The notes: generated by a model from the sequence alone, not told the origin. Counted from the first letter of the stretch, positions 2,269 through 49,071 are shown. The stretch: 64,000 nucleotides of DNA from an uncultured Candidatus Saccharibacteria bacterium (GCA_964357175.1 CAYHJU010000001.1:32871-96870), one strand, 5' to 3'. Translations and numbers: made by a program.

Positions 2269-3363
2269 ATGGTTTGGTCTTTATTTGGATTTAGTAAAGA
2301 AAATTATTTGGGCGTAGATTTTGGCGAAAGCTCTATAAAGATAGTTGAATTGGAAGATAGCAAGGGCGCGCCATTTCTTAAAAACTATGCCGTGGCATCT
2401 TTAATTGATGTGCCTGAAAATTTAAATGGCGCACCTTCTCATAAGCCATTTTTCTCTGAAAATCAGTATGCCAAAACCGTGGGATCAATTTTAGATAAAT
2501 TGAACATTAAAGCCAAAAAGGCGTTTTTTTCTTTGCCCATATATCCCAGCTTTTCAACCACCATAGAGATACCGCTAATGTCAGAAAAAGAAATGGATCA
2601 GGCGGTTCCGCTGGAGGCGCGCAAGTATGTGCCGATTCCTCTGAATGAAGTGGTTTTGGATTGGAATTTTTTAGGAAAGACACGAAGTGATTCTACAGAG
2701 AAGATGCGTATTTTTATAGTTGCCGTTCCTAACAACATAGTGCAAAGCTATATAAGTATAGCTCATCAAAACAAATTGAAGGTTGAGGCCATGGAGCTTG
2801 AAACGTTTAGTTCTGCCAGAGCAGTATTAGGCCCTAACGAAGAACGTCCAGTAATGATAGTGGATATTGGAGCAAATTCTACCGATGTGGCCATAAGCTA
2901 TAAGGGGCAGGTGGAAATGAGTCACAATTTTGAGATTTCAGGATTTAACTTTACTTATGCTATAGCTAAAAGTTTAAACATAGATATTAATCGCGCGGAA
3001 CAGCTAAAAAGAAGCGCGGGACTCCTGGGAGGCGGGGGAGAACAAGAGCTTTCTTCCATAATGTTTCCCTTGCTGGATGCCGTCATAGAAGAAATAAGGC
3101 GCGCCGCGGCAAATTATGAACAAAAATATGGCCGCCCCATTAAAAAGGTTATCCTTGCAGGAGGATCTGCCAATCTCAAGGGTTTAATAAATTATTTTGT
3201 GAAACAATTAAATATAGAGGTGGGGTTGGCCAATCCGTTTTTATCAATAAAGTATCAGCCAGCGCTTGAAAAGACGCTTCGAGAACTTGGCCCAGAACTT
3301 GCGGTGGCTTGCGGACTGGCGCTTAAGGGGTTTGCGGCTAAGCGTCAAAAGCAAGAGAAGTGA
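2269..3363 (+). CDS. pilM: type IV pilus assembly protein PilM (actin-like ATPase fold)
   Basis: LGVDFGESSIKIVEL N-terminus and overall PilM/FtsA-like architecture; first gene of a pilMNO-pilB cluster. Confidence 0.8.
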   Translation: MVWSLFGFSKENYLGVDFGESSIKIVELEDSKGAPFLKNYAVASLIDVPENLNGAPSHKPFFSENQYAKTVGSILDKLNIKAKKAFFSLPIYPSFSTTIEIPLMSEKEMDQAVPLEARKYVPIPLNEVVLDWNFLGKTRSDSTEKMRIFIVAVPNNIVQSYISIAHQNKLKVEAMELETFSSARAVLGPNEERPVMIVDIGANSTDVAISYKGQVEMSHNFEISGFNFTYAIAKSLNIDINRAEQLKRSAGLLGGGGEQELSSIMFPLLDAVIEEIRRAAANYEQKYGRPIKKVILAGGSANLKGLINYFVKQLNIEVGLANPFLSIKYQPALEKTLRELGPELAVACGLALKGFAAKRQKQEK

Positions 3364-3465
3364 TCTTGACGCCTTACTGTTTTAATCTTAATTGTGTTAT
3401 AATTAGTATAGATATTAATGGCTAAATATAAGTACTAGATTCTAACTCCTAAATTCTAAATTATT

Positions 3466-3996
3466 ATGATTGACGTTTCACTTATACCTAAAGAGGCACC
3501 AAAATCATTTCCTATAAATAAGCTGTTTTCTTGGATTTCTCTTTTAGTTTTAATTATATCTGTCGTTGCGGGCGGGCTTATTGTCTTTATGCTCATATCT
3601 TCTAAGAATAATTTGGTCCAGCTCAATCAACAACTCCAGGAATTAGATAAAAATATAAATTCTCAACAAGAAACTATTCAGTTTGCCCAATCGGTTTTAG
3701 TAGCCGATCAAATTATTAGTAGCCACAAATACCCCAGCAGACTCATGGATTTTCTGGAGAAAAACACGAATATGTTTATACAGTGGACAAGCTTGAATGT
3801 TGATCTTTCCAACAAAACCGTTGATTTAAATGGTAGGGCACACGACCTTCTGGCTGTGGCTCAACAGATAAAACGCCTGGAAAACTCTAAGGTTGTTTCT
3901 GGTATTAAATTGGGAAGCGTGGCATCAGAAAACAATGGCGTCTCTTTTAAATTGAACTTTTCTTTAGACGGCAGCATTTTGTCTGTTAGGTATTAA
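3466..3996 (+). CDS. pilN: PilN-like bitopic pilus assembly protein
   Basis: Short cytoplasmic N-terminus, single TM segment, coiled-coil periplasmic part; positioned after pilM. Confidence 0.55.
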   Translation: MIDVSLIPKEAPKSFPINKLFSWISLLVLIISVVAGGLIVFMLISSKNNLVQLNQQLQELDKNINSQQETIQFAQSVLVADQIISSHKYPSRLMDFLEKNTNMFIQWTSLNVDLSNKTVDLNGRAHDLLAVAQQIKRLENSKVVSGIKLGSVASENNGVSFKLNFSLDGSILSVRY

Positions 3997-4021
3997 AATA
4001 AATTTTCAATAATTTCAAATT

Positions 4022-4552
4022 ATGCAAAAAATAACAACAGCTATCACAACCCTTGGTCTTGCCGTGATCGTCATTTTTGGGGTTTTGTGGCCAGCATATA
4101 AAATACTGAATAATTTAAAAGGAGAAATAAGTAATATTAATGATGCTATAGCGCAAAAAAATCAAGAGATGGAATCTCTGAAGTTTTTTTCGCAAAGGAT
4201 GAAAGAAATGGATCCGGCTCAAGTGAATCGTATCAATGCGCTGGCTCCTGCGCAAAGCCAGCCAGATCTTATTGCTGAAGTGAACGGCATGGCTTTGGCG
4301 AGCGGCCTGTCCATAAACACATTTAGTGAAACGCCCTTGGAGACTCAGACAGGAGGACCACTAAAGCAGTCGAGAGTAGAGATTTCTTTTAAAAGCGATT
4401 ACGCTAATTTAAAAAGATTTTTAAGTAATATGGAATTGAGCGCTCGGCTCTTTGAGTTGTCTGGCCTGTCTTTGAAAGCCGCGGGCGTTGAATTAGGGAA
4501 GGGCCAGTTGCCTCTTGATGTAAAAACTAATTTTGATATTTATTACAAATAA
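4022..4552 (+). CDS. pilO: PilO-like pilus assembly protein
   Basis: N-terminal TM segment then coiled coil; sits between pilN and pilB. Confidence 0.5.
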   Translation: MQKITTAITTLGLAVIVIFGVLWPAYKILNNLKGEISNINDAIAQKNQEMESLKFFSQRMKEMDPAQVNRINALAPAQSQPDLIAEVNGMALASGLSINTFSETPLETQTGGPLKQSRVEISFKSDYANLKRFLSNMELSARLFELSGLSLKAAGVELGKGQLPLDVKTNFDIYYK

Positions 4553-4565
4553 TTCGAATTTATTT

Positions 4566-4865
4566 ATGCCAAATTCAGAAATTTATAATATTAAAGGTAA
4601 TAGTGTATCGAATTTATTAATAATCCTCGTGATTGCCATAAGTGTGGTAGCGGCAGGAATATTTTTTCTGCCCCAATTAGTAGAATCTTATTTTTCTTAT
4701 GACCCGTCTTTGGTGGTTATAAGCCCAACCCTTTTGTTGCCAAAAAGTGGTGATAAAATTGTATCTAATGAGAGACAGCTAAATGATTTCCAATTGCCAC
4801 AAGGCATACCCCTCAATATAACGGAAAGTATTTTTGGACGAGCCAATCCCTTTGCTCCTTTATAG
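4566..4865 (+). CDS. small membrane protein (PilP-like position)
   Basis: ORF with one TM segment. Start moved to the internal ATG at 4566 to avoid overlapping pilO. Confidence 0.35.
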   Translation: MPNSEIYNIKGNSVSNLLIILVIAISVVAAGIFFLPQLVESYFSYDPSLVVISPTLLLPKSGDKIVSNERQLNDFQLPQGIPLNITESIFGRANPFAPL

Positions 4866-4874
4866 GTATAGTTT

Positions 4875-6617
4875 ATGACTAAAGAAAATAACTTTTTAAA
4901 TTATTTAACAAGCCAGGACAAATTAAGCGAGGCCAATTTAAAATCGGCCAGCGAAGAGGCGTCAAAAAACAGCCAGAATATAGAAGATGTTTTAATAGAA
5001 AAAAAATATTTGTCCGAACAGGAGCTTTATCAGCTTAAGGCTGATTTTTTAAATCTTGAATTAAGGTTTTTTTCAGAAACAGACACCATACCTTTTGACA
5101 TTTTGGCTTTAGTCTCACAAGAAGCGGCGGTCCAATACAAATTTATTCCACTCAATCGCACAGACGAGTATTTGCAGGCGGGAATGGTCCGCCCGGAAGA
5201 TTTTAAATCACAAGAAGCCCTGCACTTTATTGCGGCGCGGCTTGGCTTAAAAACAAAAGTGTTTTTAATAACGCCGCAGAGTTTCAATAACGCGCTGAAG
5301 CAATATCAAAGCTTGACGGGAGAAGTTAGCACTGCATTGGAAAAAATGACAGCCGAGCTTAAAGACGAAGAGATTGCGGATTTTCAGGAAAGTGGAAAAC
5401 AAAAAGACATTTCTTTGGTGCTTGAGGAGGCGCCCATCACAAAGGTTGTGGGGGTTGTGTTAAAGCACGCTGTTGAAGGTAGGGCCTCGGATATTCATAT
5501 TGAGCCGTTTCAGGACAGGATTCGTGTAAGATTTAGAGTAGACGGTGTTTTGTCCACCAGCCTTTTTTTACCCAAGGACGTGCTTTTGCAAATTGTGTCC
5601 CGTATAAAAATATTATCCGGACTGCAAATAGATGAAACTCGCAAGCCACAAGATGGAAGATTTCAAACTAAAATTAATGGCCGCGAGATAGATTTTCGTG
5701 TGTCTGTATTTCCCACTTCAAAAGGAGAAAAGGTGGCCATTCGCGTTTTGGATTCTTTAGTTGGAATTTCCACTTTTCTTGAGCTGGGTCTACAAGGCAG
5801 GAACGCCAAAAAAGTTCTTGAAGGCCTACAAAAACCTTTCGGATTGATAGTTAACACAGGTCCGACTGGTTCGGGCAAGTCTACCACTTTGTATGCCATG
5901 ATGCTCAAGCTCAACCAAGAGGGCGTTAATATAGTCAGCTTGGAAGATCCAGTAGAATATTTGCTTGAGGGCGTAAATCAATCCCAAGTAAGGCCAGAGC
6001 TGGGGTATGATTTTGCTTCAGGCCTTCGAAGTATTTTGCGCCAAGATCCGGACATTATAATGCTCGGAGAGGTGAGGGATAGAGAAACCGCGGGACTGGT
6101 CGTGCACGCCGCTTTGACGGGCCATATCGTTTTATCAACTCTTCACACCAACAATGCCATTGGCGCTATCCCGCGCCTTATAGACATGGGAGTGGAACCG
6201 TTTCTTATCCCGTCTTCGTTAACTATGGTGCTCGCTCAACGTTTAGTTAAAAAGCTGTGTGATTATTGTAAAGCTCCCATAAAGCCAATAGGCGAACTAA
6301 AGGATTTAGTAGAAGAGGCTATGTCGTCTTTTTCCGCGGAAGAATTAAAGGAGTTTGGTGTTGATGCTAAACAGATTTTTGAATCCAAGGGTTGCAAAAA
6401 ATGCGCAGGCAAAGGCACCAGGGGGCGCGTGGCGATTTATGAAATTTTAATGATGACGCCCCAGCTGGAAGAGATAATTTTGACAGAACCTTCCTCAGGT
6501 AAAATTGAGACAGAAGCTAAACGCCAGGGCATGGTTTCTATGAAGCACGATGGTATAATTAAGGCTCTGCAGGGGTTAGTTAGTTTGGAAGAAGTAATGA
6601 GGGTGGTTGAAGAATAA
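4875..6617 (+). CDS. pilB: type IV pilus assembly ATPase PilB (GspE family)
   Basis: Walker A GPTGSGKSTT, Asp box, His box, and a C-terminal tetracysteine motif CDYC...CKKC. Confidence 0.85.
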   Translation: MTKENNFLNYLTSQDKLSEANLKSASEEASKNSQNIEDVLIEKKYLSEQELYQLKADFLNLELRFFSETDTIPFDILALVSQEAAVQYKFIPLNRTDEYLQAGMVRPEDFKSQEALHFIAARLGLKTKVFLITPQSFNNALKQYQSLTGEVSTALEKMTAELKDEEIADFQESGKQKDISLVLEEAPITKVVGVVLKHAVEGRASDIHIEPFQDRIRVRFRVDGVLSTSLFLPKDVLLQIVSRIKILSGLQIDETRKPQDGRFQTKINGREIDFRVSVFPTSKGEKVAIRVLDSLVGISTFLELGLQGRNAKKVLEGLQKPFGLIVNTGPTGSGKSTTLYAMMLKLNQEGVNIVSLEDPVEYLLEGVNQSQVRPELGYDFASGLRSILRQDPDIIMLGEVRDRETAGLVVHAALTGHIVLSTLHTNNAIGAIPRLIDMGVEPFLIPSSLTMVLAQRLVKKLCDYCKAPIKPIGELKDLVEEAMSSFSAEELKEFGVDAKQIFESKGCKKCAGKGTRGRVAIYEILMMTPQLEEIILTEPSSGKIETEAKRQGMVSMKHDGIIKALQGLVSLEEVMRVVEE

Positions 6618-6638
6618 GATCTAATATTTAATTTTTGA

Positions 6639-6658
6639 CCTGCCTGCCGGCAGGCAGG
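6639..6658. repeat. perfect 20-nt palindrome CCTGCCTGCCGGCAGGCAGG, member of a dispersed family
   Basis: Exact palindrome 19 nt upstream of the receiver gene ATG; an identical copy at 18480-18499 and near-identical copies at 46740 and 48575. Confidence 0.7.
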
Positions 6659-6676
6659 GATTTAAACTTGAAATCT

Positions 6677-7060
6677 ATGGCAAAAGAAAAACAACACATT
6701 CTCTTGGTAGAGGACGATCCATTTTTGTCCGATATTTATTCTACGAAATTGGAAAGCGCCGGGTTTGGCTTGTCTGTGGCCTATGATGGGGAAGAGGTTT
6801 TTAAAAAAATTGAAGAAAAGACTCCTGAATTGATACTTTTGGATATAGTGTTGCCGAAAATGGACGGCTTTGAAGTTTTAAAAAAATTAAAATCTGACTT
6901 GAGGTTCAACAAAATTCCCGTGATCTTACTCACCAATTTGGGCCAGAAGGAAGATATAGATAAGGGCATGAGCTTGGGCGCGCAGGATTATTTAATAAAA
7001 GCCAATTTTATTCCATCGGAGATAGTAGAAAAAATTAAATGTTTTTTAAAAAGTAACTAA
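6677..7060 (+). CDS. single-domain response regulator (CheY-like receiver, PilH/PilG-like)
   Basis: ILLVEDD...D...K receiver-domain pattern. Start set at the internal ATG (MAKEK); located between pilB and pilT. Confidence 0.8.
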   Translation: MAKEKQHILLVEDDPFLSDIYSTKLESAGFGLSVAYDGEEVFKKIEEKTPELILLDIVLPKMDGFEVLKKLKSDLRFNKIPVILLTNLGQKEDIDKGMSLGAQDYLIKANFIPSEIVEKIKCFLKSN

Positions 7061-7068
7061 AAATATTT

Positions 7069-8139
7069 ATGAGCACCACAGAAGAAGAATTAAACGATTT
7101 GCTTTTTACAACGCTTAAGGAAAATGCGTCTGATTTACATTTGTCAGTCGGGCGTTATCCGACTTTGCGCGTTGATGGGTCTTTGTTGCCACTTACGCAA
7201 AAACCTATTTTAAATGGTGAAATGATAGAAAAAATAGCCACGGCCTTTATTACATCGGAACAAAAAGAGATGCTTTTTAGGGAAAGAGAGCTGGACTTGG
7301 CATATGACTTTAAGGGCAAGGCGCGTTTTCGTGTGAATATGTATTTTAATCAAGGCGCCATCGCGATTGCCTTACGCTTAATCACAGCCAAGGTACGCAC
7401 CATTGATGAGCTTGGTCTGCCCTCGATTTTACACAGATTTACCGATCTCAAGCAGGGATTTTTCCTCGTGGTGGGACCTTCGGGAAATGGCAAATCTACC
7501 ACTTTGGCGGCCATGGTGGACGAAATTAATCACAAAAGAGCGGAGCACATTATAACCATAGAAGATCCCGTGGAGTATATTTTTGAACAGGATTTATCGA
7601 TAATCAATCAAAGAGAGGTTGGGCGGGACACGATAAGTTTTCACGGCGCGCTAAGAGCTTCTTTGCGAGAAGATCCCAATGTCATCATGGTGGGTGAAAT
7701 GCGCGACGCGGAAACGATGTCTACTGCCATTACAGCGGCAGAAACCGGACATTTGGTGCTTTCTACGCTCCACACAAACAACGCTTCTCAAACCATAGAC
7801 CGTATCATAGACAGCTTTCCGGCCGAACAACAGGACCAGGTGAGAGCGCAACTTGCCGCCACTTTGGTGGGTGCAATATCGGAAAGATTGTTGCCGCGTA
7901 TTCGCGGGGGCAGGATTCCTGCCTATGAGATTATGGTGGCAAATTCTGCGGTAAAATCATTGATTCGTGAAAATAAGGTTCATCAACTGGATTTAGTCAT
8001 TGAAACCGGCGCCGAAGAAGGGATGATTTCTTTAAATAGGTCTTTAGCAAATTTAGTAAAAAGTGGAGAGGTGACTCTTTCTGCCGCAGAGCTTTATTCT
8101 TTAAATAGAAAAGAATTTCTTGCGCTCGTAGGAAAATAA
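7069..8139 (+). CDS. pilT: twitching motility ATPase PilT
   Basis: GPSGNGKSTTLAAM Walker A; PilT-type His box and length (~356 aa). Confidence 0.85.
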   Translation: MSTTEEELNDLLFTTLKENASDLHLSVGRYPTLRVDGSLLPLTQKPILNGEMIEKIATAFITSEQKEMLFRERELDLAYDFKGKARFRVNMYFNQGAIAIALRLITAKVRTIDELGLPSILHRFTDLKQGFFLVVGPSGNGKSTTLAAMVDEINHKRAEHIITIEDPVEYIFEQDLSIINQREVGRDTISFHGALRASLREDPNVIMVGEMRDAETMSTAITAAETGHLVLSTLHTNNASQTIDRIIDSFPAEQQDQVRAQLAATLVGAISERLLPRIRGGRIPAYEIMVANSAVKSLIRENKVHQLDLVIETGAEEGMISLNRSLANLVKSGEVTLSAAELYSLNRKEFLALVGK

Positions 8140-8141
8140 TT

Positions 8142-8283
8142 CACCCTGTTAAATAATTGAAAATTTTATATAAAATTTGAAATTAAAATTTGTCACTCAA
8201 ACATTTTTAAAACATTTAAGAAAATAACTAAAAATATAAAATACTACCCAGTTTAGATAGAAGCAAATTTTATTTAACAGGGT
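8142..8283. promoter_or_regulatory. inverted-repeat element CACCCTGTTAAATAA ... TTATTTAACAGGG flanking a ~110 nt AT-rich spacer upstream of pilC
   Basis: Arms at 8142-8156 and 8269-8283. The right arm plus AAGCAAATT is repeated at 10151-10174 upstream of the second pilin gene. Confidence 0.4.
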
Positions 8284-8291
8284 AAAAATCT

Positions 8292-9497
8292 ATGAGATTT
8301 GCATACGAAGCTAAAACTCAAGAAGGGCAGTCACAAAAAGGCGCTATCGACGCCGGGAGCGTTGAGGCGGCAGTAGATATTTTACAGCAAAGAAGACTCA
8401 TAGTGATAAAAGTTTCCGCTACTTCGGAGACGCCCTTTAATTTGTCATTGAAAGATGTTATAGGCAGAGTTAGCAAAAAAGACATAGCAATTTTTTCTCG
8501 TCAGGTGGCAACACTATTTGAAGCAAAAGTTCCCATTGTGGAATCATTAAAAACTTTATCTGAACAAGAAGACAAAAAGAAATTAAGAGACGTGATCGAT
8601 AGTTTGGCCTATGAGGTGGAAAGCGGCACACCGCTTTCGAAGGCTCTGTTGAAACATCCAGATGTTTTTTCCAATTTTTTCATTCAAGTGGTTCGTTCTG
8701 GTGAGGCCTCAGGAAAGCTGGGCGATGTGTTCAAATATTTGGCGGATTATTTAGAAAGAGATGTAGCGGTGCGCCAGAAAATCAAGGGCGCTCTTATTTA
8801 TCCCGCTTTCATATTAGTTGCGATGGCGGTGGTAATGGTTATTCTAATGACTTATGTTGTGCCTCAAATCAGCGCTATTTTAAAGGATCTGGGACAGACC
8901 CTGCCTTTAATAACGCTGGTGGTTGTGAGTATTAGTAATTTCGTCGCGTCTTTTTGGTGGCTAATTGCCATAATCTTTGGGACTCTTTTGATTTTTGGGT
9001 GGCGCTATATCCACACCAAAGATGGTAAGGCGGTCTGGGATAAATTAATTCTGGATTTTCCTATTATCGGAAATTTATTGCAGAAGACTTATATGATGCG
9101 TTTTGCCGAAACCCTGTCTTTGCTATTGGAAGGCGGCTTGCCTCTGCCGCAGTCATTGGAAATAACTTCAGATATGATAGACAATGAAGTTTATAGAGCT
9201 GTTTTAAATGATTCCGTAAAAGCCGTTCGTGAGGGATCGCAAATGAGCACTGTTTTGCGCCAAAGCGCGTATGTGCCGAAACTCGTTTCGCAAATGGTGA
9301 TGGTCGGAGAAAACACTGGTCGCATAGAGGATATGTTGCGCCATGTCTCCAAATTTTTTGCGAGTGAGGTAGATTCGGCAATTTCAGGATTGACCGCCAC
9401 CATAGAACCGATCTTGATAGTTGTCATAGGCGCTGGAGTGGGCGTTATAGTCGTTAGTATCATTATGCCTATTTATAATATTGCCGGATCGTTTTAA
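8292..9497 (+). CDS. pilC: type IV pilus platform protein PilC (GspF family)
   Basis: Two GspF repeats and three TM segments; ~400 aa. Confidence 0.85.
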   Translation: MRFAYEAKTQEGQSQKGAIDAGSVEAAVDILQQRRLIVIKVSATSETPFNLSLKDVIGRVSKKDIAIFSRQVATLFEAKVPIVESLKTLSEQEDKKKLRDVIDSLAYEVESGTPLSKALLKHPDVFSNFFIQVVRSGEASGKLGDVFKYLADYLERDVAVRQKIKGALIYPAFILVAMAVVMVILMTYVVPQISAILKDLGQTLPLITLVVVSISNFVASFWWLIAIIFGTLLIFGWRYIHTKDGKAVWDKLILDFPIIGNLLQKTYMMRFAETLSLLLEGGLPLPQSLEITSDMIDNEVYRAVLNDSVKAVREGSQMSTVLRQSAYVPKLVSQMVMVGENTGRIEDMLRHVSKFFASEVDSAISGLTATIEPILIVVIGAGVGVIVVSIIMPIYNIAGSF

Positions 9498-9531
9498 ATT
9501 AAAAATTTAAAGTGAAAAACTAAAAATATTT

Positions 9532-10044
9532 ATGATGAACAAAAAAAATAAAGGCTTTACCCTGCTCGAGCTTTTGGTGGTTATCGTTATCATTGGGCTT
9601 GTCTCTACGATAACCCTCACCTTTATTTATATGTCTAAAAATCGCGCTAAAAAATCGCGCATTGTATCCAATTTAGACCAAGTCAGAAAAACGGCCGAAC
9701 TTTTTTATAACGGTAATAATTATAGCTATATGGGCTTGAGTGATGCGCCGGACATATTGATTCTTAGGGAGGATGTGGTTAAGCAGGGTGGTCAGCTAAA
9801 TATTTATCCTAGCGTTGATTCCTATGTGGCTTATAGCGCGTATCCAGGCGCGGAAAACAACCATTATTGGTGTACAGATAGTCAAGGAAACTCAAAGGAT
9901 GTGACGGGCTATCCTTCGGGTAGCTGTAATAGTACGGGGGCCTGCCCTCCGGGCCAGACGAATCCATATGGGCAGTATCGATTTAGATCCGGCTGTGTGC
10001 GCGTTTCAGGATGTGGCACCAGCACATGCTCTTTGCCTTACTAA
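9532..10044 (+). CDS. type IV pilin-like protein (prepilin, class III signal peptide)
   Basis: MMNKKNKG|FTLLELLVVIVIIGL prepilin cleavage/methylation motif; Cys-rich C-terminus. Confidence 0.75.
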   Translation: MMNKKNKGFTLLELLVVIVIIGLVSTITLTFIYMSKNRAKKSRIVSNLDQVRKTAELFYNGNNYSYMGLSDAPDILILREDVVKQGGQLNIYPSVDSYVAYSAYPGAENNHYWCTDSQGNSKDVTGYPSGSCNSTGACPPGQTNPYGQYRFRSGCVRVSGCGTSTCSLPY

Positions 10045-10056
10045 ATGAAATGTATT

Positions 10057-10084
10057 TTGATGATTTTATAAACTGGTGTATAAT
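10057..10084 (+). promoter_or_regulatory. sigma70-like promoter (TTGATG-16-TATAAT) for the second pilin gene
   Basis: TTGATG at 10057-62 and TATAAT at 10079-84 with TG immediately upstream. It leaves a ~190 nt leader containing the inverted repeat at 10119-10174. Confidence 0.4.
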
Positions 10085-10118
10085 TAGAGCAAGGAAATAA
10101 TTTACGATTTTTAATTTT

Positions 10119-10174
10119 TACCCTGTTAAATAGAACATAGTTCTAATTTGCGAAGCAAATTATTTAACAGGGTG
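10119..10174. promoter_or_regulatory. inverted-repeat/hairpin element TACCCTGTTAAATA ... TATTTAACAGGGTG in the pilin leader
   Basis: Outer arms at 10119-10132 and 10161-10174, with inner palindromes (AGAACATAGTTCT, AATTTGCGAAGCAAATT). Same motif as at 8142-8283. Confidence 0.4.
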
Positions 10175-10272
10175 GAAATCCAATAAATCCTAAAAGGTCG
10201 GTCGCTTATTCGCTTTAAAAACGAATAAGAAGAAATGAAAATTATTTATAACTCTAATTTAAACTAAACAAT

Positions 10273-10680
10273 ATGAAAAAAAATAAAGGTTTTACTTTAA
10301 TCGAGCTTTTAGTCGTTATCGCCATTATCGGTTTATTATCAACGATTGTTTTGGTTTCTTTAAACAGCGCCAGAAACAAAGCCAAAGATGTCAGAATTAA
10401 AGCCGATTTAGCTCAGGTTCGTTCACTTGCTGAATTGAATGCTGACACAAGCAATACATATGTTTTGGCAGTACCTTCTTCTTACTCCACTCAATATGCA
10501 ACTTTAACAGCTGATATCGATGCGCAGGTTCCTCAAACAGTAGTTTACAATGCCACTGCGACCGCATATGGTGCTTCAGCCCAATTAACAGGAACTGGCG
10601 CTTTCTGGTGCGTTGATAGCACAGGCGTTTCTAAGGCCGAGGGCGCAACTTTGGGTGTAGGGGTCACAGTTTGTCCGTAA
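10273..10680 (+). CDS. pilA: type IV pilin (probable major pilin)
   Basis: MKKNKG|FTLIELLVVIAIIGLL prepilin motif; 135 aa; followed by a strong terminator. Confidence 0.8.
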   Translation: MKKNKGFTLIELLVVIAIIGLLSTIVLVSLNSARNKAKDVRIKADLAQVRSLAELNADTSNTYVLAVPSSYSTQYATLTADIDAQVPQTVVYNATATAYGASAQLTGTGAFWCVDSTGVSKAEGATLGVGVTVCP

Positions 10681-10704
10681 TCATTTCTTGATGATGTTTG
10701 TATT

Positions 10705-10748
10705 AATTCGGCGCCCCGCAAAGCGGGGCGCCGAATTGTTTTATTTCA
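10705..10748 (+). terminator. rho-independent terminator
   Basis: ATTCGGCGCCCCGCaaaGCGGGGCGCCGAAT 14-bp GC-rich stem followed by TTGTTTTATTT. Confidence 0.75.
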
Positions 10749-10926
10749 TCACCACACCCAAAAATCATCCAACCTATTTTTAAGATTTTTTATTCTACTT
10801 TATTTTTAACGACCGTCAGTAAAAAGGTAGAATAAATTCATTCTGTAAAATACGAACGATCGTCAGCAAAATACAGAATAAAATAAGGCGTTCGAGTTTT
10901 TGTTAATTTTATCCTATAATTAAACT

Positions 10927-11733
10927 ATGCTTATCATAGAATCAATTTTAATATTTTTATTCGGACTTTGTATCGGCAGTTTCTTAAATGTCGTTATTTT
11001 TCGTGTATTGTCAGGAGAAAGCCTGCGTGGTCGCTCGCACTGCCAAAAGTGTCTCAAGACCTTAAGATGGTATGAGCTTTTTCCGCTTGCAAGTTTTGTC
11101 TGGCAAAAAGGCAGATGCCGTTCGTGTCAAGAAAAAATTTCCTGGCAATATCCTTTGGCAGAATTGATTACAGCAGTATTATTTTTGTTAATCTTCCAAC
11201 ATTTTTATGGCAACTGGGCCGAGATGATTTTATGGATTGTGGTCGCATCAGCTTTTGTGGTTTTATTTTTCACGGATTTGAAAGAATATATTTTGCCGGA
11301 TGTTATTGTGATTCCTCTGATTGCCGTTTTATTTTTATACCGCACATTTCAATCTTTTTATCTGGGGAGTTTTGATTTTTTTGCAAATTTTGTCATCGCG
11401 TCCTTTCTAATCGCCTTGCCATTTTTTCTTTTTTATGCGATATCAGGCGGGAGAATGATTCGGACAGGAATATTTAAAATAGAATGGATGGGCATGGGGG
11501 ATTCAAAGCTAATATTTTTGGCAGGTCTTCTTTTGGGTTGGCCCAAAATTTTGATAGCGGTAATGTTCGCGGTGTTTTTAGGGTCTTTGTGGGGAATTTT
11601 GTTGATGTTTTTAAAAAAGTTTACGCTCAAAAGCGCCATGCCTTTTGGACCTTTTATAATTTTAGGCGCGTTTCTTTCTCTGTATTTTGGTGATATAATT
11701 TACGAGTGGTATATCAATTGGCTATTTTTTTAA
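10927..11733 (+). CDS. pilD: prepilin peptidase PilD (A24 family)
   Basis: N-terminal CxxC...CxxC zinc motif, 8 TM segments, conserved GMGDSKL Asp box. Confidence 0.85.
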   Translation: MLIIESILIFLFGLCIGSFLNVVIFRVLSGESLRGRSHCQKCLKTLRWYELFPLASFVWQKGRCRSCQEKISWQYPLAELITAVLFLLIFQHFYGNWAEMILWIVVASAFVVLFFTDLKEYILPDVIVIPLIAVLFLYRTFQSFYLGSFDFFANFVIASFLIALPFFLFYAISGGRMIRTGIFKIEWMGMGDSKLIFLAGLLLGWPKILIAVMFAVFLGSLWGILLMFLKKFTLKSAMPFGPFIILGAFLSLYFGDIIYEWYINWLFF

Positions 11734-11740
11734 ATTTTTA

Positions 11741-12268
11741 ATGGAAAATCCTTTAGATAAAAAGAATATAATGGGGTTCACGCTTGTTGAGCTTGCGGTT
11801 TCTATGCTGATAATTGGTCTTATATCAACTATCGTTTTGACTAATTATAACGCAGGCAGAAAACAGGAAGCCCTAAATCGTTCGGTCCAAAGATTGGCTG
11901 TGGCAATAAGACAGGCGCAAAATTACGCTCTTTTTTCCCGGGTTGGCACAAAATGCAGTACTCCCGCGGGGGGATACGGAATTTATGTGTCTTCTGCCTC
12001 ACAATATGTGATTTTTGGCGACTGTAGTGGAAATCGTTTGTATGATCTTGCCAGTGATGATTTAATCAGCACTATAAAGGTTGAATCCGACGTGCAAATA
12101 TCAAGCGCGTCACTTATATCTATGACGTTTGAGCCGCCAATAGGAAAGTTTTATTACAATGGTTTGGTGCCAACTGTATCCAATACGATTATTTTACAAA
12201 ATTCTTCTGATGTTACTAAACAGAAAATTACAAATATTTCCGCAAATGGGAGCGTGAGCGTGCAGTAA
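11741..12268 (+). CDS. minor pilin / pseudopilin
   Basis: MG|FTLVELAVSMLIIGL prepilin motif. Confidence 0.65.
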   Translation: MENPLDKKNIMGFTLVELAVSMLIIGLISTIVLTNYNAGRKQEALNRSVQRLAVAIRQAQNYALFSRVGTKCSTPAGGYGIYVSSASQYVIFGDCSGNRLYDLASDDLISTIKVESDVQISSASLISMTFEPPIGKFYYNGLVPTVSNTIILQNSSDVTKQKITNISANGSVSVQ

Positions 12269-12289
12269 TTTCAAATTTTAAAAAATAAC

Positions 12290-12868
12290 ATGATTAATTT
12301 TTTTAAAGGACAAAAAAACGGATTTACTCTCTTGGAAACGCTCGTAACCATAGTGGTTATCTCGGTGGGTGTTTTGGGTTCAATAAATTTAATAAATAAC
12401 AGTTTTGGCTTGGCGACCATCGCTAAAAATAAACTTATCGCCGCCGATTTGGCGCAAGAGGGGTTTGAGCTTGTGAGAAACATAAGGGATGTTAACTATT
12501 TAAATAACAATAACTGGCTACAAGGGCTTGATAGTTGTTTAACTTCCAGCGGATGCTTGATTGATCCCGTTTCGGGCGGTCAGGTTGTGACTGTGCCAGC
12601 TCCTTCTTCTATTGATGATGTTAAGATGTGCTATGGCACCAACGGATATTATTCTACTACGACAAATTGTGGCGCGTCTCAGGCCGTGAATTTTCAAAGA
12701 GTTATTAAAATTTCCCTAATTGGCGCAGGAGATGGGGGAATTAAAATAATTTCCAGAGTTCGTTGGCAAGAAAAGGGAATCTGGAAAGATTTTGGAACAG
12801 ATGGAGGCAATTTTGAATATCATCTTTGTGATTGGAAAAATCCAAATCCTAGTATTTCGTGTTATTAA
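12290..12868 (+). CDS. minor pilin (PilV-like)
   Basis: NG|FTLLETLVTIVVISVG prepilin motif. Confidence 0.65.
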   Translation: MINFFKGQKNGFTLLETLVTIVVISVGVLGSINLINNSFGLATIAKNKLIAADLAQEGFELVRNIRDVNYLNNNNWLQGLDSCLTSSGCLIDPVSGGQVVTVPAPSSIDDVKMCYGTNGYYSTTTNCGASQAVNFQRVIKISLIGAGDGGIKIISRVRWQEKGIWKDFGTDGGNFEYHLCDWKNPNPSISCY

Positions 12869-12887
12869 AAAAAGACTTTAATTCATC

Positions 12888-13520
12888 ATGCTTAATCTAA
12901 AAAATAATAATCACAAAACGGGGCCTGCCCCCACATCTTACTGTTTTGATGGTGGGACAATTGATCAATTGGCCGATGGTGCTTATTTAGCTTTGAAACA
13001 TAAAAAAAACAACAAGGTGTGGGGGTTTTCACTAATAGAATTAGTCGTTGCCTTGGGTGTGTTTTCCGTTATCAGTATGGCGCTGGTGGGGCTTTTTGTT
13101 TCATCGTTGCGTGGTGAAAGAAAGGCGTTGAATATGCAACTTGCGCAAGACAACGCGAGATTGGTTATGGAAATAATGGTAAGAGAATTGAGAGATGGAT
13201 CTAATGTGGCTTTTGGTAGCGATCAAAATGTGTCATTTAACGACAAAAACAACACGCCGATTACTTATTCTGTGAGCGCCTGTAGCCCTCCCAATGTGAC
13301 CAATAATTGTATTAAACGCGCGGCCAGTGGAAGTACGATAGATCTGGGGAGTGAAAATGTGAGCACAACTAATCTCAAATTTTTTGGCGTGAGTTCAAGC
13401 GCGTCTTTAAATCAGCCTAGAGTTACGATTTTTTTCACTATGGAAAGCGGAATGGCGCCATATAGCTCTAATATAAATCTACAAACGACCGTTTCTTTAA
13501 GAAATATAAAGTTACAATAA
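12888..13520 (+). CDS. minor pilin (PilW-like). True start is probably the downstream TTG at 12993
   Basis: Prepilin motif KVWG|FSLIELVVALGVF lies ~40 aa into the ORF. The in-frame TTG at 12993 would give a normal short leader. Confidence 0.55.
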   Translation: MLNLKNNNHKTGPAPTSYCFDGGTIDQLADGAYLALKHKKNNKVWGFSLIELVVALGVFSVISMALVGLFVSSLRGERKALNMQLAQDNARLVMEIMVRELRDGSNVAFGSDQNVSFNDKNNTPITYSVSACSPPNVTNNCIKRAASGSTIDLGSENVSTTNLKFFGVSSSASLNQPRVTIFFTMESGMAPYSSNINLQTTVSLRNIKLQ

Positions 13521-33422: not shown

Positions 33423-34124
33423 TTATTTATTTTTTAATTTTTTTATTTCCATCTCAATCTCTTTTAAAACTTCTTTATTTCCAATCTCTCCATCTAAACT
33501 AAAAATAATAAATACTCCTCCTTTATATTTTTTTTCAAAATCAGCAAAATTCGCCTCCATTCTTTCTGATATGGAATAATTGCCGAAATTTGCTTTTGCT
33601 GTTATTGGTTTGATTTGTATTCCAAAGGCATGTTTACCAACAAGCCCCAAATAATCTATGTCGCCGGCATGATCTAAATCGGTTTCGCTTTCAACAAATT
33701 TTACTTCCGGAAAATGTTTTGCTAGCCCATCATTTACTACGGATTTTTCACGAATAAAGCCATCATAAGTACGATTTACCGTCAGATTGTAGATATAGTC
33801 CATGCAATCTTGCAGGGACAGTTCATTAAATGCTGCTTGCCACTCAGGAATTACAACTTCGGTAATTTTCTCATATAAACGTTCGCCTAATTCTTTTAAA
33901 ATTTTCGGCGTTATTTTTATGGGACTTTTGTTTTCGGTATATGCTTTTTCAAAATACCACTTTTTCCATTCCCCAATTGTTTTGGGCTGGCATTCTCTTA
34001 TCAACGCCATTACTGCGCCAACTTTATTTGGTCGAGATAATTGATAAGTTTGGCAGGCATAATTTAAAACCTTTTCCTTTTTACCGAAATCCATTGAAAA
34101 TTTTCCCGATATTTTATTTGCCAT
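33423..34124 (-). CDS. candidate type II restriction endonuclease (partner of the adjacent methyltransferase)
   Basis: 233-aa ORF overlapping the 3' end of the MTase gene (operon). Possible PD-(D/E)xK-like D...DIDYLG...IQIK segment; no firm family assignment. Confidence 0.4.
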   Translation of the reverse strand: MANKISGKFSMDFGKKEKVLNYACQTYQLSRPNKVGAVMALIRECQPKTIGEWKKWYFEKAYTENKSPIKITPKILKELGERLYEKITEVVIPEWQAAFNELSLQDCMDYIYNLTVNRTYDGFIREKSVVNDGLAKHFPEVKFVESETDLDHAGDIDYLGLVGKHAFGIQIKPITAKANFGNYSISERMEANFADFEKKYKGGVFIIFSLDGEIGNKEVLKEIEMEIKKLKNK

Positions 34125-35409
34125 AACTATACTTTAATAAATTACTAAATTTGTCTTTATATTTATATTCCATCTCGGTGTCAGGTAAGGCTAGTCCATT
34201 TTTTATTAAATGAGCGTTGATAAAAGTTTTATTCTGTAAATAAAGATAAGCTAATAAATTATTTTTATCATCATATTTTTGAGAATCAAATTTCATAAAC
34301 ACCCTTTGCCCCTTTGTTTTTTTGGACAAATAATCTATGGCCTTGCCATTAATTTTGAGATCTTGTTTTATGCCAATTAGTCTAATAATTAAACCATTGC
34401 TCAACCTAATGATTTCAGGGCTAATTATTTCTTTTACTGAGAATAGACTCTCTTTTTTTGATTGGTTATTATCAATTTTTGATCCGAACTGTAATTTTTT
34501 AGGATCTATTTTTTTATCCAATTTATGTGGATCTTTAAATATGTATGGCAATCGACTTAAGTTTTCATTAAAATCGGCATTTTTTCTACTCTTAATGAAT
34601 TCAAAAGAATTATTATTAAAATTAAATGAATCAACGACACCAATTTTAGTTTTGATGATTGGTAAAAACTCAGAATTAATTTCGTACCCGACCGAATTTC
34701 TATCAAGATTTTTTGCAGCTAAGGATGTAGTTCCGCTTCCTAAAAATGGATCCAACACAGTATCGTCAACAAATGAAAACATTTTTATTAGCCTCCGCGG
34801 TAATTCTTCCGGAAACATTGCAATATGGCCATCTTGTCTGGCTCCGCCAAAATTCCAATGACCCTGAAAATATTGATTCCACTCCTCTTTGCTTAATTTA
34901 GATTTTTCCTTTATCTCTTTATCAATTTTGGGCGCATCGCCTTGTTTTTTAAATATTAAAATAAATTCATAATCTAATTTTATAATTCCGTTTCTTGGAT
35001 ATGGAAAGCTGCCCATTATGGTTGCTCCGCCAGTAGTGTTCATAGTGGTGGATTTTTGCCAAATAATTGCTCCCATATAATCAAGTCCGATCGTTTCGCA
35101 AAATTTAATAACCTCTGTTCTTATGGGGATTACCTTGTAACGACCATAATAAACAGAGCGAGCAAATTGATCGCCGATATTTATACAAAGACGACAGCCA
35201 TTTTTTAAAACTCGATTACATTCGCTCCAAACCAAATTCAAATGATTGATGTATTTTTCATAACTATCATTAAAACCAATCTGATTATCTGAACCGTAAT
35301 CCTTTAATTGCCAATATGGTGGCGATGTAATAATTAAATGTACGCTCTCGTTTGGCAATTCTTTCATTGCCCGCGAATCGCCACTAATTATTTTATGACT
35401 TGTTTTCAT
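34114..35409 (-). CDS. beta-class N4-cytosine/N6-adenine DNA methyltransferase with a C-terminal SNase-like (thermonuclease-fold) extension
   Basis: Motif IV SPPY (IITSPPYW) precedes motif I (DPFLGSGTT), i.e. beta-class order. The C-terminal ~130 aa align to staphylococcal nuclease (IRLIGI..., DKNNLLAYLYL, INAHLIKNGLA) but lack the DTPE catalytic motif. Confidence 0.75.
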   Translation of the reverse strand: MKTSHKIISGDSRAMKELPNESVHLIITSPPYWQLKDYGSDNQIGFNDSYEKYINHLNLVWSECNRVLKNGCRLCINIGDQFARSVYYGRYKVIPIRTEVIKFCETIGLDYMGAIIWQKSTTMNTTGGATIMGSFPYPRNGIIKLDYEFILIFKKQGDAPKIDKEIKEKSKLSKEEWNQYFQGHWNFGGARQDGHIAMFPEELPRRLIKMFSFVDDTVLDPFLGSGTTSLAAKNLDRNSVGYEINSEFLPIIKTKIGVVDSFNFNNNSFEFIKSRKNADFNENLSRLPYIFKDPHKLDKKIDPKKLQFGSKIDNNQSKKESLFSVKEIISPEIIRLSNGLIIRLIGIKQDLKINGKAIDYLSKKTKGQRVFMKFDSQKYDDKNNLLAYLYLQNKTFINAHLIKNGLALPDTEMEYKYKDKFSNLLKYSYGK

Positions 35410-36087: not shown

Positions 36088-36162
36088 ATGTTCATTCTAT
36101 CTCATTCAAAACAATATAACAAAAATTATTATTTTATTTCAGTTACAACTTAGTAATTTGTG

Positions 36163-36237
36163 CGGACCGTAGGGGATTTGAACCCCTGGTCTCCTCCGTG
36201 ACAGGGAGGCGTGTTAACCGGGCTACACCAACGGTCC
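36163..36237 (-). tRNA. tRNA-Asp (GUC)
   Basis: Minus strand: acceptor GGACCGT/ACGGTCC, anticodon stem CCTCC/GGAGG, loop CTGTCAC, T-arm AGGGGTTCAAATCCCCT, discriminator G. Confidence 0.8.
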
Positions 36238-46832: not shown

Positions 46833-47177
46833 TTATTTGACGGAGCTTAATATCTTTTCAAAAACCTTCGGTTCTTTGTTGGCGAGTTCGGCGAGAATTT
46901 TTCTGTCCAATTTCACATTATTTTTCTTGAGCTGGCTTATGAATTTACTATAGCTCAATCCTTGTATGTGGCTTGCGGCATTGATCTGTATATTCCATTT
47001 GGCGCGCGCGACACCTTTCTTTTTGCGGCGATCGCGGAAAGCATAGCTCCAGGCGTGCAGAAGCGCTTCTTTGGCGGCGCTTTCTTTGGTGCTTCGTCTC
47101 AATAAAAATCCCTTAGTGTATTTTAAGGTTTTGCGGCGTCTTTTGATGGCGATATTGCCTCTTTTTACTCTTGTCAT
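46833..47177 (-). CDS. rplT: 50S ribosomal protein L20
   Basis: MTRVKRGNIAIKRRRK... canonical bL20. Confidence 0.9.
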   Translation of the reverse strand: MTRVKRGNIAIKRRRKTLKYTKGFLLRRSTKESAAKEALLHAWSYAFRDRRKKKGVARAKWNIQINAASHIQGLSYSKFISQLKKNNVKLDRKILAELANKEPKVFEKILSSVK

Positions 47178-47233: not shown

Positions 47234-47428
47234 TTATGTCGTTAACGATCTCAATATTCTGGAATTGGTTTTTCCTACGCTGTATTCTTTGCTTTTTCTT
47301 TGTTGGACAATCGAGCTTTTTTTTGCGCGAAAATGATCCACTCCCATTTTGCGGCGCATCATTTTGCCTGTGCCTGTGACTTTAATTCTTTTTGTAACTG
47401 CTTTTTTGGTTTTTAGTTTTCCGTTCAT
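47234..47428 (-). CDS. rpmI: 50S ribosomal protein L35
   Basis: KLKTKKAVTKRIKVTGTGK... canonical bL35; 64 aa. Confidence 0.85.
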   Translation of the reverse strand: MNGKLKTKKAVTKRIKVTGTGKMMRRKMGVDHFRAKKSSIVQQRKSKEYSVGKTNSRILRSLTT

Positions 47429-47433
47429 ATTAT

Positions 47434-48009
47434 TTATTTAGTGGCGGATATTATCATCGATAAGATTCTGCCTTGCTTGATTAATCCTTGTTCAACTTTA
47501 GTCTTTAGTATAAACATTGATAGCAAATCGTCAAATTTTTTACGCGCTATATCCTGGTGAGCGTTTTCTCGCCCATGAAGCATCAGATCGATTTTTACTT
47601 TGTGCCCTTCTTTCAAAAATTTTTCTGCTTGTCTGACGCGGGTCTCCATGTCGTGCGGTGAAGAAGAAAATCCGATACGAATAATCTTTACTTCTGACTG
47701 CTTGGAATGTTTTTGATTTCCTTTTTCTCTCTTGCTAATCTCATAGAGGAATTTTCCATAGTCTGTAATTTTTGCCACAGGAGGATTGGCGGTAGGAGAT
47801 ATTTCCACCAGATCCAGGCCTTTGCTCTGGGCAACTTTTAACGCCTCATAAAGAGGCATTACTCCCAACGCTTGGTTTTTTTCATCCATCACACGAAGCT
47901 CGAGAGCCCTTATTTGCTGATTTTTTCTATAAAATTTTGCTATATCTATTGTTTTTTTAAATTGTAACGAGGTGTCCGCCCAAGGCGAGACACTCAATTT
48001 TTCAGCCAA
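47434..48009 (-). CDS. infC: translation initiation factor IF-3 (non-ATG start codon)
   Basis: IF3 N- and C-domain sequences within the conserved infC-rpmI-rplT operon. ORF begins with TTG immediately after an in-frame stop, consistent with IF3 autoregulation via atypical start codons. Confidence 0.85.
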   Translation of the reverse strand: MAEKLSVSPWADTSLQFKKTIDIAKFYRKNQQIRALELRVMDEKNQALGVMPLYEALKVAQSKGLDLVEISPTANPPVAKITDYGKFLYEISKREKGNQKHSKQSEVKIIRIGFSSSPHDMETRVRQAEKFLKEGHKVKIDLMLHGRENAHQDIARKKFDDLLSMFILKTKVEQGLIKQGRILSMIISATK

Positions 48010-48033
48010 TCACTAAAGCTCTTGGGAAAAATT

Positions 48034-48052
48034 GGTGGAGATGGAGGGAATT
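48034..48052. repeat. 19-nt direct repeat of the tmRNA 3' end (GGTGGAGATGGAGGGAATT), att-site-like
   Basis: Identical 19-mer at 48187-48205, which is the T-arm/acceptor/CCA end of ssrA on the minus strand. The two copies flank 134 nt. Confidence 0.6.
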
Positions 48053-48186
48053 CTCCTCACCCGATATTTTGCACGTTCGTTCCAAACAGGCAAAATATCT
48101 CCTTCGGAGCCGGGGTTTTTTAAAAATCAAAGCAGTTTGATTTTTAAAAATACCCTTCAATTCCCTCAAGTTGTTAAGGGAATTTC

Positions 48187-48565
48187 GGTGGAGATGGAGG
48201 GAATTGAACCCTCGTCCAAAAATGATGGACAACCGATTTTAGAAGCTTGTTCCCATTAGTTTTGTACATTGCGTCTTTAAATAGGAAAAAATGTGCGCAA
48301 CGCTTGCCTTTGTTTGTTTAGAGCCAACAATTAAGGCAAATGATTGGCTCGAACCTGTTAATATAACACCGCTTGAACTTAACAGGTATGGGTTAAAGCG
48401 ATGGCTTTCACGCTAAATTAGGCAAAAGCAAGCACGGGAGTAGCAAAAGCTACGCGCGCTTTTGAGAATAAGTTTGCACTTATTGGTGATCAACTTTTTA
48501 CGAAGTGGTTGATCGGCTTCGGCTTCAACGATTGCTTGCTATTTCTGTCGAATCAAAACATCCCC
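48187..48565 (-). ncRNA. ssrA: tmRNA (SsrA); predicted tag peptide (A)NLFSKARVAFATPVLAFA
   Basis: Minus strand 5' GGGGAUGUUUUGAUUCGACAG... (tmRNA consensus GGGG..G.UUCGAC). 3' end ...GAGGGUUCAAUUCCCUCCAUCUCCACC gives a tRNA-Ala-like T-arm plus acceptor with G3.U. Internal ORF GCA AAC UUA ... GCU UUU GCC UAA begins with the GCA resume codon. smpB is adjacent. Confidence 0.7.
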
Positions 48566-48627: not shown

Positions 48628-49071
48628 TTAAAAGAACCTGCCTGATGTAATTTCTCTTTGCGCCTCGCGTTTTTTGATAACCTCTCTTTTGTCGGACATT
48701 TTTTTATGGCGCGCAAGAGCTATTTCAACTTTAATCAAACCTTTCGTAGTATACACTTTGGTTGGCAAAAGTGTCAAGCCGCTCTCCTTGGTTTTTCCCA
48801 TTAAGTAGTCAACTTCCTTTCTTTTTAAAAGAAGTCGGCGCGCTCGTTCCTGGTCATATCCCTTGGGCGCATTTTTCACTTGGTAGGGCGGAACGCTTGT
48901 ACCGATAAGCCAAGCCTCACCGCCACGCACAATAATATAAGACCCCGCTAAACTGATGTGTCCGGTTTTTATTGATTTTACCTCCTGTCCATTCAATTCT
49001 ATTCCTGCTTCAAATTTTTCCAGGAATTGATAATCAAATCCTGCTTTTTTGTTGAAAAATTCCAATTGCAT
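48628..49071 (-). CDS. smpB: SsrA-binding protein SmpB
   Basis: Canonical SmpB sequence (GIELNGQEVKS..., C-terminal basic tail); 147 aa. Confidence 0.9.
   Translation of the reverse strand: MQLEFFNKKAGFDYQFLEKFEAGIELNGQEVKSIKTGHISLAGSYIIVRGGEAWLIGTSVPPYQVKNAPKGYDQERARRLLLKRKEVDYLMGKTKESGLTLLPTKVYTTKGLIKVEIALARHKKMSDKREVIKKREAQREITSGRFF

Follow-up and report, generated by a model that had tools for sequence, protein, structure and literature searches.

Two copies of the tmRNA gene 3' end beside a short strain-specific block between ssrA and infC in a groundwater Parcubacterium: a probable remnant of integration

The tmRNA gene (ssrA) of a groundwater Parcubacterium, a member of the candidate phyla radiation (CPR), is full length and intact and is followed downstream, in the same orientation, by a direct repeat of its 3' fragment. 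The two 19-nt copies are probably the cores that remained after mobile DNA had integrated site-specifically at the ssrA 3' end, and on balance we read the 228-nt block next to the gene as the decayed remnant, trimmed by deletion, of one integrative element or two. A tmRNA gene with a displaced or duplicated 3' fragment is a textbook signature, found here in a little-studied phylum. The analysis was carried out on a window of 64 kb, by which we mean the whole stretch of DNA analysed. The SmpB protein encoded in it is 90% identical to SmpB of Parcubacteria GW2011_GWA2_39_18, and loci identical to the window are present in contigs from the Hainich aquifer, well H41.

The genes of interest are arranged on the minus strand in the order smpB (49071-48628), ssrA (48565-48187), infC, rpmI and rplT, which is conserved across Parcubacteria (the window and 66 related loci). 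The features that we refer to below are these:

48628 to 49071, minus strand: smpB (SsrA-binding protein), the upstream neighbour of ssrA, from PF01668 on identical products in L001-L005 and the 90% identity given above.
48187 to 48565, minus strand: ssrA (tmRNA gene), intact, with tag peptide ANLFSKARVAFATPVLAFA; ARAGORN and Rfam RF00023 (136.2 bits, model positions 1-374).
48187 to 48205, minus strand: proximal 19-nt repeat, attL-like, then G; repeat search and Rfam alignment.
48053 to 48186, minus strand: 134-nt non-coding spacer between the repeats, with three strong hairpins (MFE -51.8 kcal/mol, z = -7.0).
48156 to 48167, minus strand: 12-nt inverted copy GAGGGAAUUGAA (RNA strand) of the T-loop/T-stem segment UUCAAUUCCCUC; repeat search.
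48034 to 48052, minus strand: distal 19-nt repeat, attR-like or an internal att copy, then A, which gives a complete ...CCACCA.
47957 to 48033, minus strand: 77 nt past the distal repeat, non-ancestral, with two hairpins, now the infC 5' leader; BLAST and fold.
47957 to 48184, minus strand: the whole strain-specific block of 228 nt, which replaces a 70-nt ancestral ssrA-infC spacer; comparison with L228, L229, L012 and L018.
47434 to 47943, minus strand: infC (IF3), with a probable AUA start at 47943-47941; PF05198 and PF00707, start from nucleotide alignment with L012 and L018.
47234 to 47428, minus strand: rpmI; PF01632 on the product.
46833 to 47177, minus strand: rplT; PF00453 on the product.

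The 19-mer GGTGGAGATGGAGGGAATT, which reads AAUUCCCUCCAUCUCCACC on the gene strand, occurs exactly twice in the 64-kb window, at 48034-48052 and 48187-48205, and a search of the same 64 kb allowing up to 3 mismatches gave no third match. The chance expectation is 0.01 and none of 100 shuffles yielded two matches. A preliminary description of this DNA had reported the two occurrences, one of them as the genuine ssrA 3' end, with 134 bp in between. Exact matching together with ARAGORN and Rfam bears this out and the measured distance is 134 nt, or 153 nt from start to start. Since both genes lie on the minus strand, the second copy is downstream of ssrA. The proximal copy consists of AAUU of the T loop followed by CCCUC, CAUCUCC and ACC. 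It starts at base 4 of the 7-nt T loop, takes in the last 4 bases of that loop, the T-stem 3' strand, the acceptor 3' strand and the discriminator with CC, and stops at ACC. With the next base the window ssrA ends ...CCACCG and the distal copy reads ...CCACCA. The two-copy arrangement is identical in seven independently assembled contigs from different samples, L001-L007 (five ENA and two Logan assemblies).

We surveyed related loci, comprising 80 metagenomic loci found via SmpB alignment and further loci found by exact protein look-up. The order smpB-ssrA-infC is present in 66 of the related loci (L012, L018, L022 and the range L143-L221). Among these 66 syntenic loci a duplicate of the tmRNA end of at least 12 nt and at most 10 kb downstream was found in the window and the L018 lineage only; the second copy is absent in 63 and present in the window and two L018-lineage contigs. 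The exact window IF3 protein is also encoded on two short contigs, L228 (well H32) and L229 (well H52). Compared with the window, L228 shows 99.1% identity in the final 229 nt of the ssrA alignment, and across infC-rpmI the two contigs show 98.7-98.8%. BLAST identity between window and L228 ends at 48185 and restarts at 47956: L228 has a single tmRNA end and then a 70-nt ancestral spacer where the window has 228 nt (48184-47957). L229 starts within the ancestral spacer. This spacer reads GAGTCAAACTCGGCC... in both contigs and is also the one found in L012 and L018. L228 and L229 have the form expected of an empty attB, a single copy with the 70-nt ancestral spacer.

Because these ~99% identical contigs have the 70-nt spacer instead, the non-coding block at 47957-48184 is a recent strain-level gain and not a conserved regulatory feature. 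The duplicate is accordingly no part of a conserved infC leader, an origin that the preliminary description had named as the one that would speak against an att site: both the 63 of 66 related loci and the 99%-identical L228 and L229 are without the second copy. The comparison of ssrA-infC spacing that it had proposed gives 299 nt in the window against a median of 80 nt in the relatives, and the sister contigs show the empty site. Past the distal copy the window reads AATTTTTCCC... and the ancestral sequence GAGTCAAAC..., and the two are different. Within the 77-nt flank, weak similarity to the ancestral spacer (p ~0.01) is confined to the distal half, which consists of a hairpin and an A-rich tract.

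Two mismatches separate the window from L228 in the 229 nt of ssrA. One is at 48203, the third base of the repeat on the gene strand, with T in the window, C in L228 and L012, and a native T in L018. This single base hints that the proximal copy may itself be of the foreign type. We do not take it as proof, as it is one of two mismatches and L018 has T natively.

A second insertion, at the same position, was found in L018, L019, L020 and L143. Here an insert of 78 nt with complementary ends lies between two 17-nt copies of the same gene segment, AATTCCCTCCATCTCCACT and cATTCCCTCCATCTCCACC, which are 95 nt apart. By Rfam the tmRNA gene ends with the first of them. Past the distal copy L018 continues with GAGTCAAACTCGGCTTTGCCGAG..., which in L012 is the spacer behind the single copy. 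L018 has the classical attL/attR layout of a rebuilt gene, foreign DNA, and the displaced native end with its native flank. Alignment of the L018 insert with the window insert gave no significant similarity and the two have no common fold. A single ancestral insertion for both was considered and rejected on the dissimilarity of the inserts, and the lack of significant similarity makes the window and L018 inserts independent events. The tmRNA gene of L018 (2801-3202) is not called by ARAGORN, yet it scores 124 bits with Rfam; it ends ...CCACT, so that CCA is not encoded.

The 134-nt spacer of the window is predicted to fold far more strongly than shuffled sequence (-51.8 kcal/mol, z = -7.0). 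Three strong hairpins are predicted, at 48184-48159, 48155-48113 and 48099-48063, instead of the two described earlier. The 3' arm of the first hairpin is GAGGGAAUUGAA, a perfect 12-nt complement of the T-loop/T-stem segment, and the second has a stem of 19 pairs, most of them A/U, with four G-C pairs to close it. One of the hairpins had been regarded as the likely ssrA terminator, which our terminator scan does not support: no canonical terminator hairpin with U tract is found on the minus strand, the gene strand, within the spacer. Past the distal copy two further hairpins are predicted (48033-47996 and 47995-47969), so each copy of the tmRNA 3' end is directly followed by a hairpin, as in the phage contig L261 described below. 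The repeat search detected no other copy of the 134-nt spacer or its flank in the window or in loci L001-L221, and no terminal inverted repeats on the spacer. No Rfam family other than tmRNA reaches threshold at gathering or permissive settings, and blastn of the region against GenBank phages gave no match. Neither the 228-nt block nor the 50 window ORFs of at least 130 aa contain an integrase or recombinase domain. Today the block is non-autonomous, and in one strain both the DNA immediately past ssrA and all of the infC leader come from it.

For infC the gene callers' start is either TTG 48009, at which the listed infC ORF begins, or the internal ATG 47889. The TTG sits in sequence that the relatives do not have, and in L012 an in-frame TAA lies just upstream of AUA 47943-47941, the one start candidate that the window shares with L012 and L018. 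Translation of infC probably begins at this non-canonical AUA, as judged from the alignment; infC is known to use non-AUG starts, and AUA fits. The distal copy, given as 25 nt upstream of infC in the preliminary description, is then about 91 nt away, because the AUA shared with L012 and L018 and not the unconserved TTG 48009 is the likely start. In the related loci ssrA and infC nearly abut. Taking as reference the codon that aligns with the first Met of the 151-residue IF3 call, the median distance from the tmRNA end is 80 nt, and therefore about 25 nt to the likely true infC start. The 299 nt of the window, measured to the same Met, is the fourth-largest distance. Because the two genes nearly abut, their spacing suggests that they may be co-transcribed, in which case tmRNA 3' processing would create the 5' end of the infC mRNA.

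The same junction carries larger mobile DNA in other loci. Large serine recombinase regions were found at:

L160 1839-3847, strand opposite ssrA.
L222 10001-11554, strand opposite ssrA.
L224 1579-11602, strand opposite ssrA.
L226 1910-11611, strand opposite ssrA.

The recombinases are of 515-540 aa with Resolvase, Recombinase and Zn ribbon domains; all four sit right at the ssrA 3' end, with ORFs that extend into the tmRNA gene. The large serine recombinase of L160 has 518 residues (Resolvase, Recombinase, Zn_ribbon_recom) and is accompanied at the tmRNA end by a 148-residue resolvase-domain protein; identity with the sister locus L154 breaks exactly at ...CCAC. Those of L222, L224 and L226 are homologues of the L160 enzyme. 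An element of ~10 kb fills the ssrA-infC gap in L224 and L226; the L222 stretch is without infC. The cargo of the L224 element includes a primase-polymerase, a BglII-type restriction-modification pair and an ImmA/HTH pair. In L181 (1095-5962) a 4-kb island between ssrA and infC is flanked by 203-nt inverted repeats, 96% complementary, and carries a TaqI-type endonuclease, a LexA/S24-N6_N4 methylase fusion, a ThsB-like TIR protein and an 8xMP membrane protein. Judged by these loci, the ssrA-infC junction is a hot spot for mobile DNA. Tightly packed and conserved as it is, it is yet a recurrent landing site, as seen in the two repeat-flanked remnants, the defence island of L181 and the four elements with serine recombinases.

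We considered the serine-recombinase elements as a source of the 19-nt repeat but cannot name them as such, there being no tmRNA-end repeat at the far sides of the L222, L224 and L226 elements even with 5 mismatches in 22 (the L160 contig ends earlier). The smpB-infC interval is unusually long in L173 (3572-4457), L175 (5502-6387) and L208 (10420-11623), at 885 and 1203 nt; the repeat of the tmRNA end was not detected in these three, and they may hold other insertions or enlarged tmRNA genes.

An attP-type junction for the 19-nt core would read GGGTGAGGAG plus the 19-mer plus GAAATTCCC, or GGGTGAGGAGAATTCCCTCCATCTCCACCGAAATTCCC, with GAAATTCCCTTAACAACTTGAGGGAATTG and CCACCAATTTTTCCCAAGAGC as the arm sequences. 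A scan of IMG/VR with the 19-mer yielded no attP; its only matches were on two phage contigs whose tmRNA genes are permuted. With the 16-mer TTCCCTCCATCTCCAC, 71 of 112 matches lie in tmRNA genes of viral contigs and the rest are mostly chance. Viral-contig tmRNA genes (IMG/VR L010, L011 and L231-L339) have a near-identical T arm and acceptor end, GGACGAGGGTTCGATTCCCTCCATCTCCACCA. In a scan of the genome collection with the 17-nt core, 19 of 119 stretches among the matches listed are in tmRNA genes, most matches being chance or unrelated tmRNA genes, and none of these 19 tmRNA-gene stretches has a second core copy among the matches listed. One IMG/VR phage contig, L261 (343-1528), encodes a tyrosine integrase (PF00589 and an arm-binding domain) and has TTCCCTCCATCTCCACCA with a terminator hairpin 76 nt past the integrase stop. 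We regard it as a candidate attP carrying the tmRNA 3' end, with arms unlike those of the window. Because L261 has TTCCCTCCATCTCCACCA near a tyrosine integrase, elements carrying this tmRNA 3' end do exist; an intact element with the 19-nt core and the window arms was not found in the IMG/VR scans.

The window layout could have arisen as follows. Recombination within the shared segment would rebuild an intact ssrA, giving the proximal copy and then element DNA that starts with a hairpin, and the former ssrA 3' end would be pushed downstream to become the distal copy. Deletions would then remove integrase and cargo and leave the 134-nt hairpin-rich remnant. An extra event would be needed because the DNA past the distal copy is not the local ancestral spacer. 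One option is that integration and decay would have taken place in a divergent relative and the allele would have been imported by homologous recombination via ssrA and infC, so that the relative's own spacer would follow the distal copy. The other is that two elements would have integrated in tandem, the newest beside ssrA, and that a deletion would have taken the older one along with the native copy and spacer. We infer the recombinase origin of the duplication, the class of the recombinase and this order of events from the layout.

The reading of the repeat as an att-site footprint, made in the preliminary description, is upheld by the span of the repeat, the empty site and the independent L018 event. 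It is weakened in that no integrase gene was found in the block or the window ORFs, and no intact element or attP with this core and these arms in the IMG/VR scans. The repeat had also been described as the scar of an excised island, which we do not retain because clean excision would leave one copy and two remain. The picture of a genuine end plus a displaced native end fits L018, where the distal fragment has its native flank; in the window both sides of the distal copy are non-ancestral. A further point against integration is that only 4 of the 7 T-loop bases are common to both copies. A tandem duplication model was discarded on the grounds that the DNA after copy 1 is unrelated to the DNA after copy 2.

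The combination of an intact target gene with a downstream direct repeat of its 3' fragment from the T-loop/T-stem region is shared with the integrative islands of tRNA and tmRNA genes. L261 would be a phage example, with a candidate attP of this 3' end beside a tyrosine integrase. Islands and prophages of the tyrosine-integrase type in tRNA and tmRNA genes were reportedly treated by Williams in 2002 and 2003. Such islands carry a fragment of the target gene in attP (Islander, PMC4383910), and the span from mid T loop to 3' end is the one described for integrative elements in these genes (PMC4383910). The tmRNA gene is the most enriched island target, a site in the T-stem region is used by 1836 of the 3919 islands, and tandem arrays number 125 (PMC4383910). 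The window differs in having 134 nt between the repeats (228 nt of foreign DNA in total) with no integrase and no cargo, in a distal fragment without the local native flank and in its CPR host. Among the papers listed by one full-text literature search, none dealt with such islands in Patescibacteria.

The Dehalococcoides ssrA islands have a 20-bp repeat of similar span (PMC3146451), which runs from mid T loop to the 3' end as in the window. They occur in tandem with copies of the repeat between them, some are without integration modules, and a 540-residue serine recombinase lies beside attL (PMC3146451). Serine integrases are stated not to be known to target tRNA genes (Islander, PMC4383910). 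L160 resembles the Dehalococcoides islands by arrangement, with its 518-aa recombinase and smaller resolvase-domain protein on the reverse strand at the ssrA 3' end, and by this analogy the DsiB system of Dehalococcoides would be the closest precedent for the Parcubacterial serine recombinases at ssrA. The window differs from it in being without a recombinase, and L222, L224 and L226 in being without a far-side tmRNA-end repeat. A DsiB-like large serine recombinase with a small DsiA beside attL is absent from the window, and tblastn with a serine recombinase against the 64 kb gave nothing.

Among other small or decayed elements, CIMEs are alike in being flanked by att copies with their own integrase absent, but they comprise kilobases and genes, whereas the window has 134 nt of hairpins and putative mobility. 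MITEs and small IS derivatives are also short structured non-coding inserts within a direct repeat. The duplication of 17-19 nt of one specific gene end, twice independently, is however unlike a transposase target duplication, and the window insert has neither terminal inverted repeats nor other copies. A conserved infC or L20-type leader RNA differs in that the block has no conservation in relatives and no curated-family match at threshold.

Instead of a decayed remnant the window could hold a miniature element that is still mobilisable, a 153-bp unit of one repeat and the 134-nt spacer excised or exchanged in trans, in the manner of a cis-mobilisable element, by a recombinase encoded elsewhere in the genome or on a co-resident element. 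The repeats are identical in 19 of 19 positions and would make two perfect att cores, the strong fold (z = -7.0) and the inverted T-arm copy could provide a putative protein-binding site, and the insert is polymorphic within one aquifer population. Integrase-less att-flanked Dehalococcoides ssrA islands have moreover been discussed as cis-mobilisable (PMC3146451). We nevertheless think such an element unlikely: all seven window-type contigs have two copies and none was seen in which one copy is joined to the AATTTTTCCC flank, the 134 nt do not recur in the window or loci L001-L221, no recombinase gene was found in the 64 kb, and arm-dependent integrases typically have an attP of ~250 bp, much more than 134 nt (PMC4383910).

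The duplication could also have arisen with no recombinase at all, by replication slippage, hairpin template switching or illegitimate repair recombination that copied 19 nt and added unrelated DNA. Repair pathways are few in CPR genomes, a hairpin-rich region favours template switching, and an integrase was found neither in the block nor in the window ORFs. Yet the DNA between and after the copies is unlike local sequence, only 19 nt being locally copied, and two independent inserts have the same repeat boundaries at a canonical integrase site. What the repeat covers is, moreover, precisely the stretch of ssrA that integration would oblige an element to restore, and we consider an origin of this kind improbable.

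A functional RNA is a further alternative, in which the distal copy and the hairpins upstream of it would act in cis on an ssrA-infC co-transcript. One possible role is to imitate the tmRNA 3' end so that an RNase or SmpB binds; another is to control infC expression by pairing with GAGGGAAUUGAA. The near-abutment of ssrA and infC in most Parcubacteria (median 80 nt) makes co-transcription plausible, the block is highly structured with a 12-nt segment complementary to the T arm of both copies, and a weak T-arm-like hairpin precedes the distal copy. Against this, the feature is absent in the 99%-identical sisters and in 63 of the 66 related loci, the L018 insert has no common sequence or fold, any 5' acceptor partner would compete with a stronger hairpin, and no Rfam family is at threshold. 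We hold such a role to be quite unlikely. It is also a rather far-fetched thought that the block is a functional exchangeable CPR cassette at the ssrA end, with recombinases like those of the serine class at this junction moving it in trans. That it is an ultra-small att-flanked unit which brings its own tmRNA 3' end, 3' flank and new infC leader seems just as speculative. If true, mobile DNA would rewire the expression of an essential translation factor whose gene is normally almost fused to ssrA.

The distal copy is very unlikely to be the last surviving 19 nt of a second tmRNA gene, be it a duplicated ssrA or a phage-borne one. Phage tmRNA genes with this 3' end are common (the 71 of 112 IMG/VR matches to the 16-nt core), and GGNNGAGG just upstream of the distal copy is faintly like the T-stem 5' strand. 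But apart from these bases nothing tmRNA-like precedes the distal copy, Rfam at gathering score gives one tmRNA gene in the window, a permissive scan of 47900-48200 finds only the proximal copy at the cut edge, and the boundary is exactly mid T loop in two independent events. An assembly artefact has practically no chance of being the explanation, for although short repeats can mislead assemblers the arrangement is the same in seven contigs and 19 nt is less than typical assembly k-mers.

If the repeats are the cores of an integration, as we favour, then mobile DNA does integrate at the ssrA 3' end in Parcubacteria, and the remnants that stay behind are very small. Our current understanding of integrative elements is unchanged by this; what is added is a CPR example and a filled/empty pair at the population level. 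Filled and empty alleles segregate among wells of one aquifer and could serve as a strain marker. The pair may also offer a natural experiment on how replacement of the whole infC leader affects expression.

Elsewhere in the window a restriction-modification pair at 33423-35409 on the minus strand lies beside tRNA-Asp (36162-36237) and is perhaps another small island. It consists of a MjaI-type endonuclease and an N6_N4 methylase fused to a staphylococcal-nuclease domain. A type IV pilus cluster on the plus strand (2269-13520) encodes PilM, PilO, two T2SSE ATPases, T2SSF, a prepilin peptidase and several N-methyl pilins; such a cluster is usual in CPR genomes and is unrelated to the repeat.
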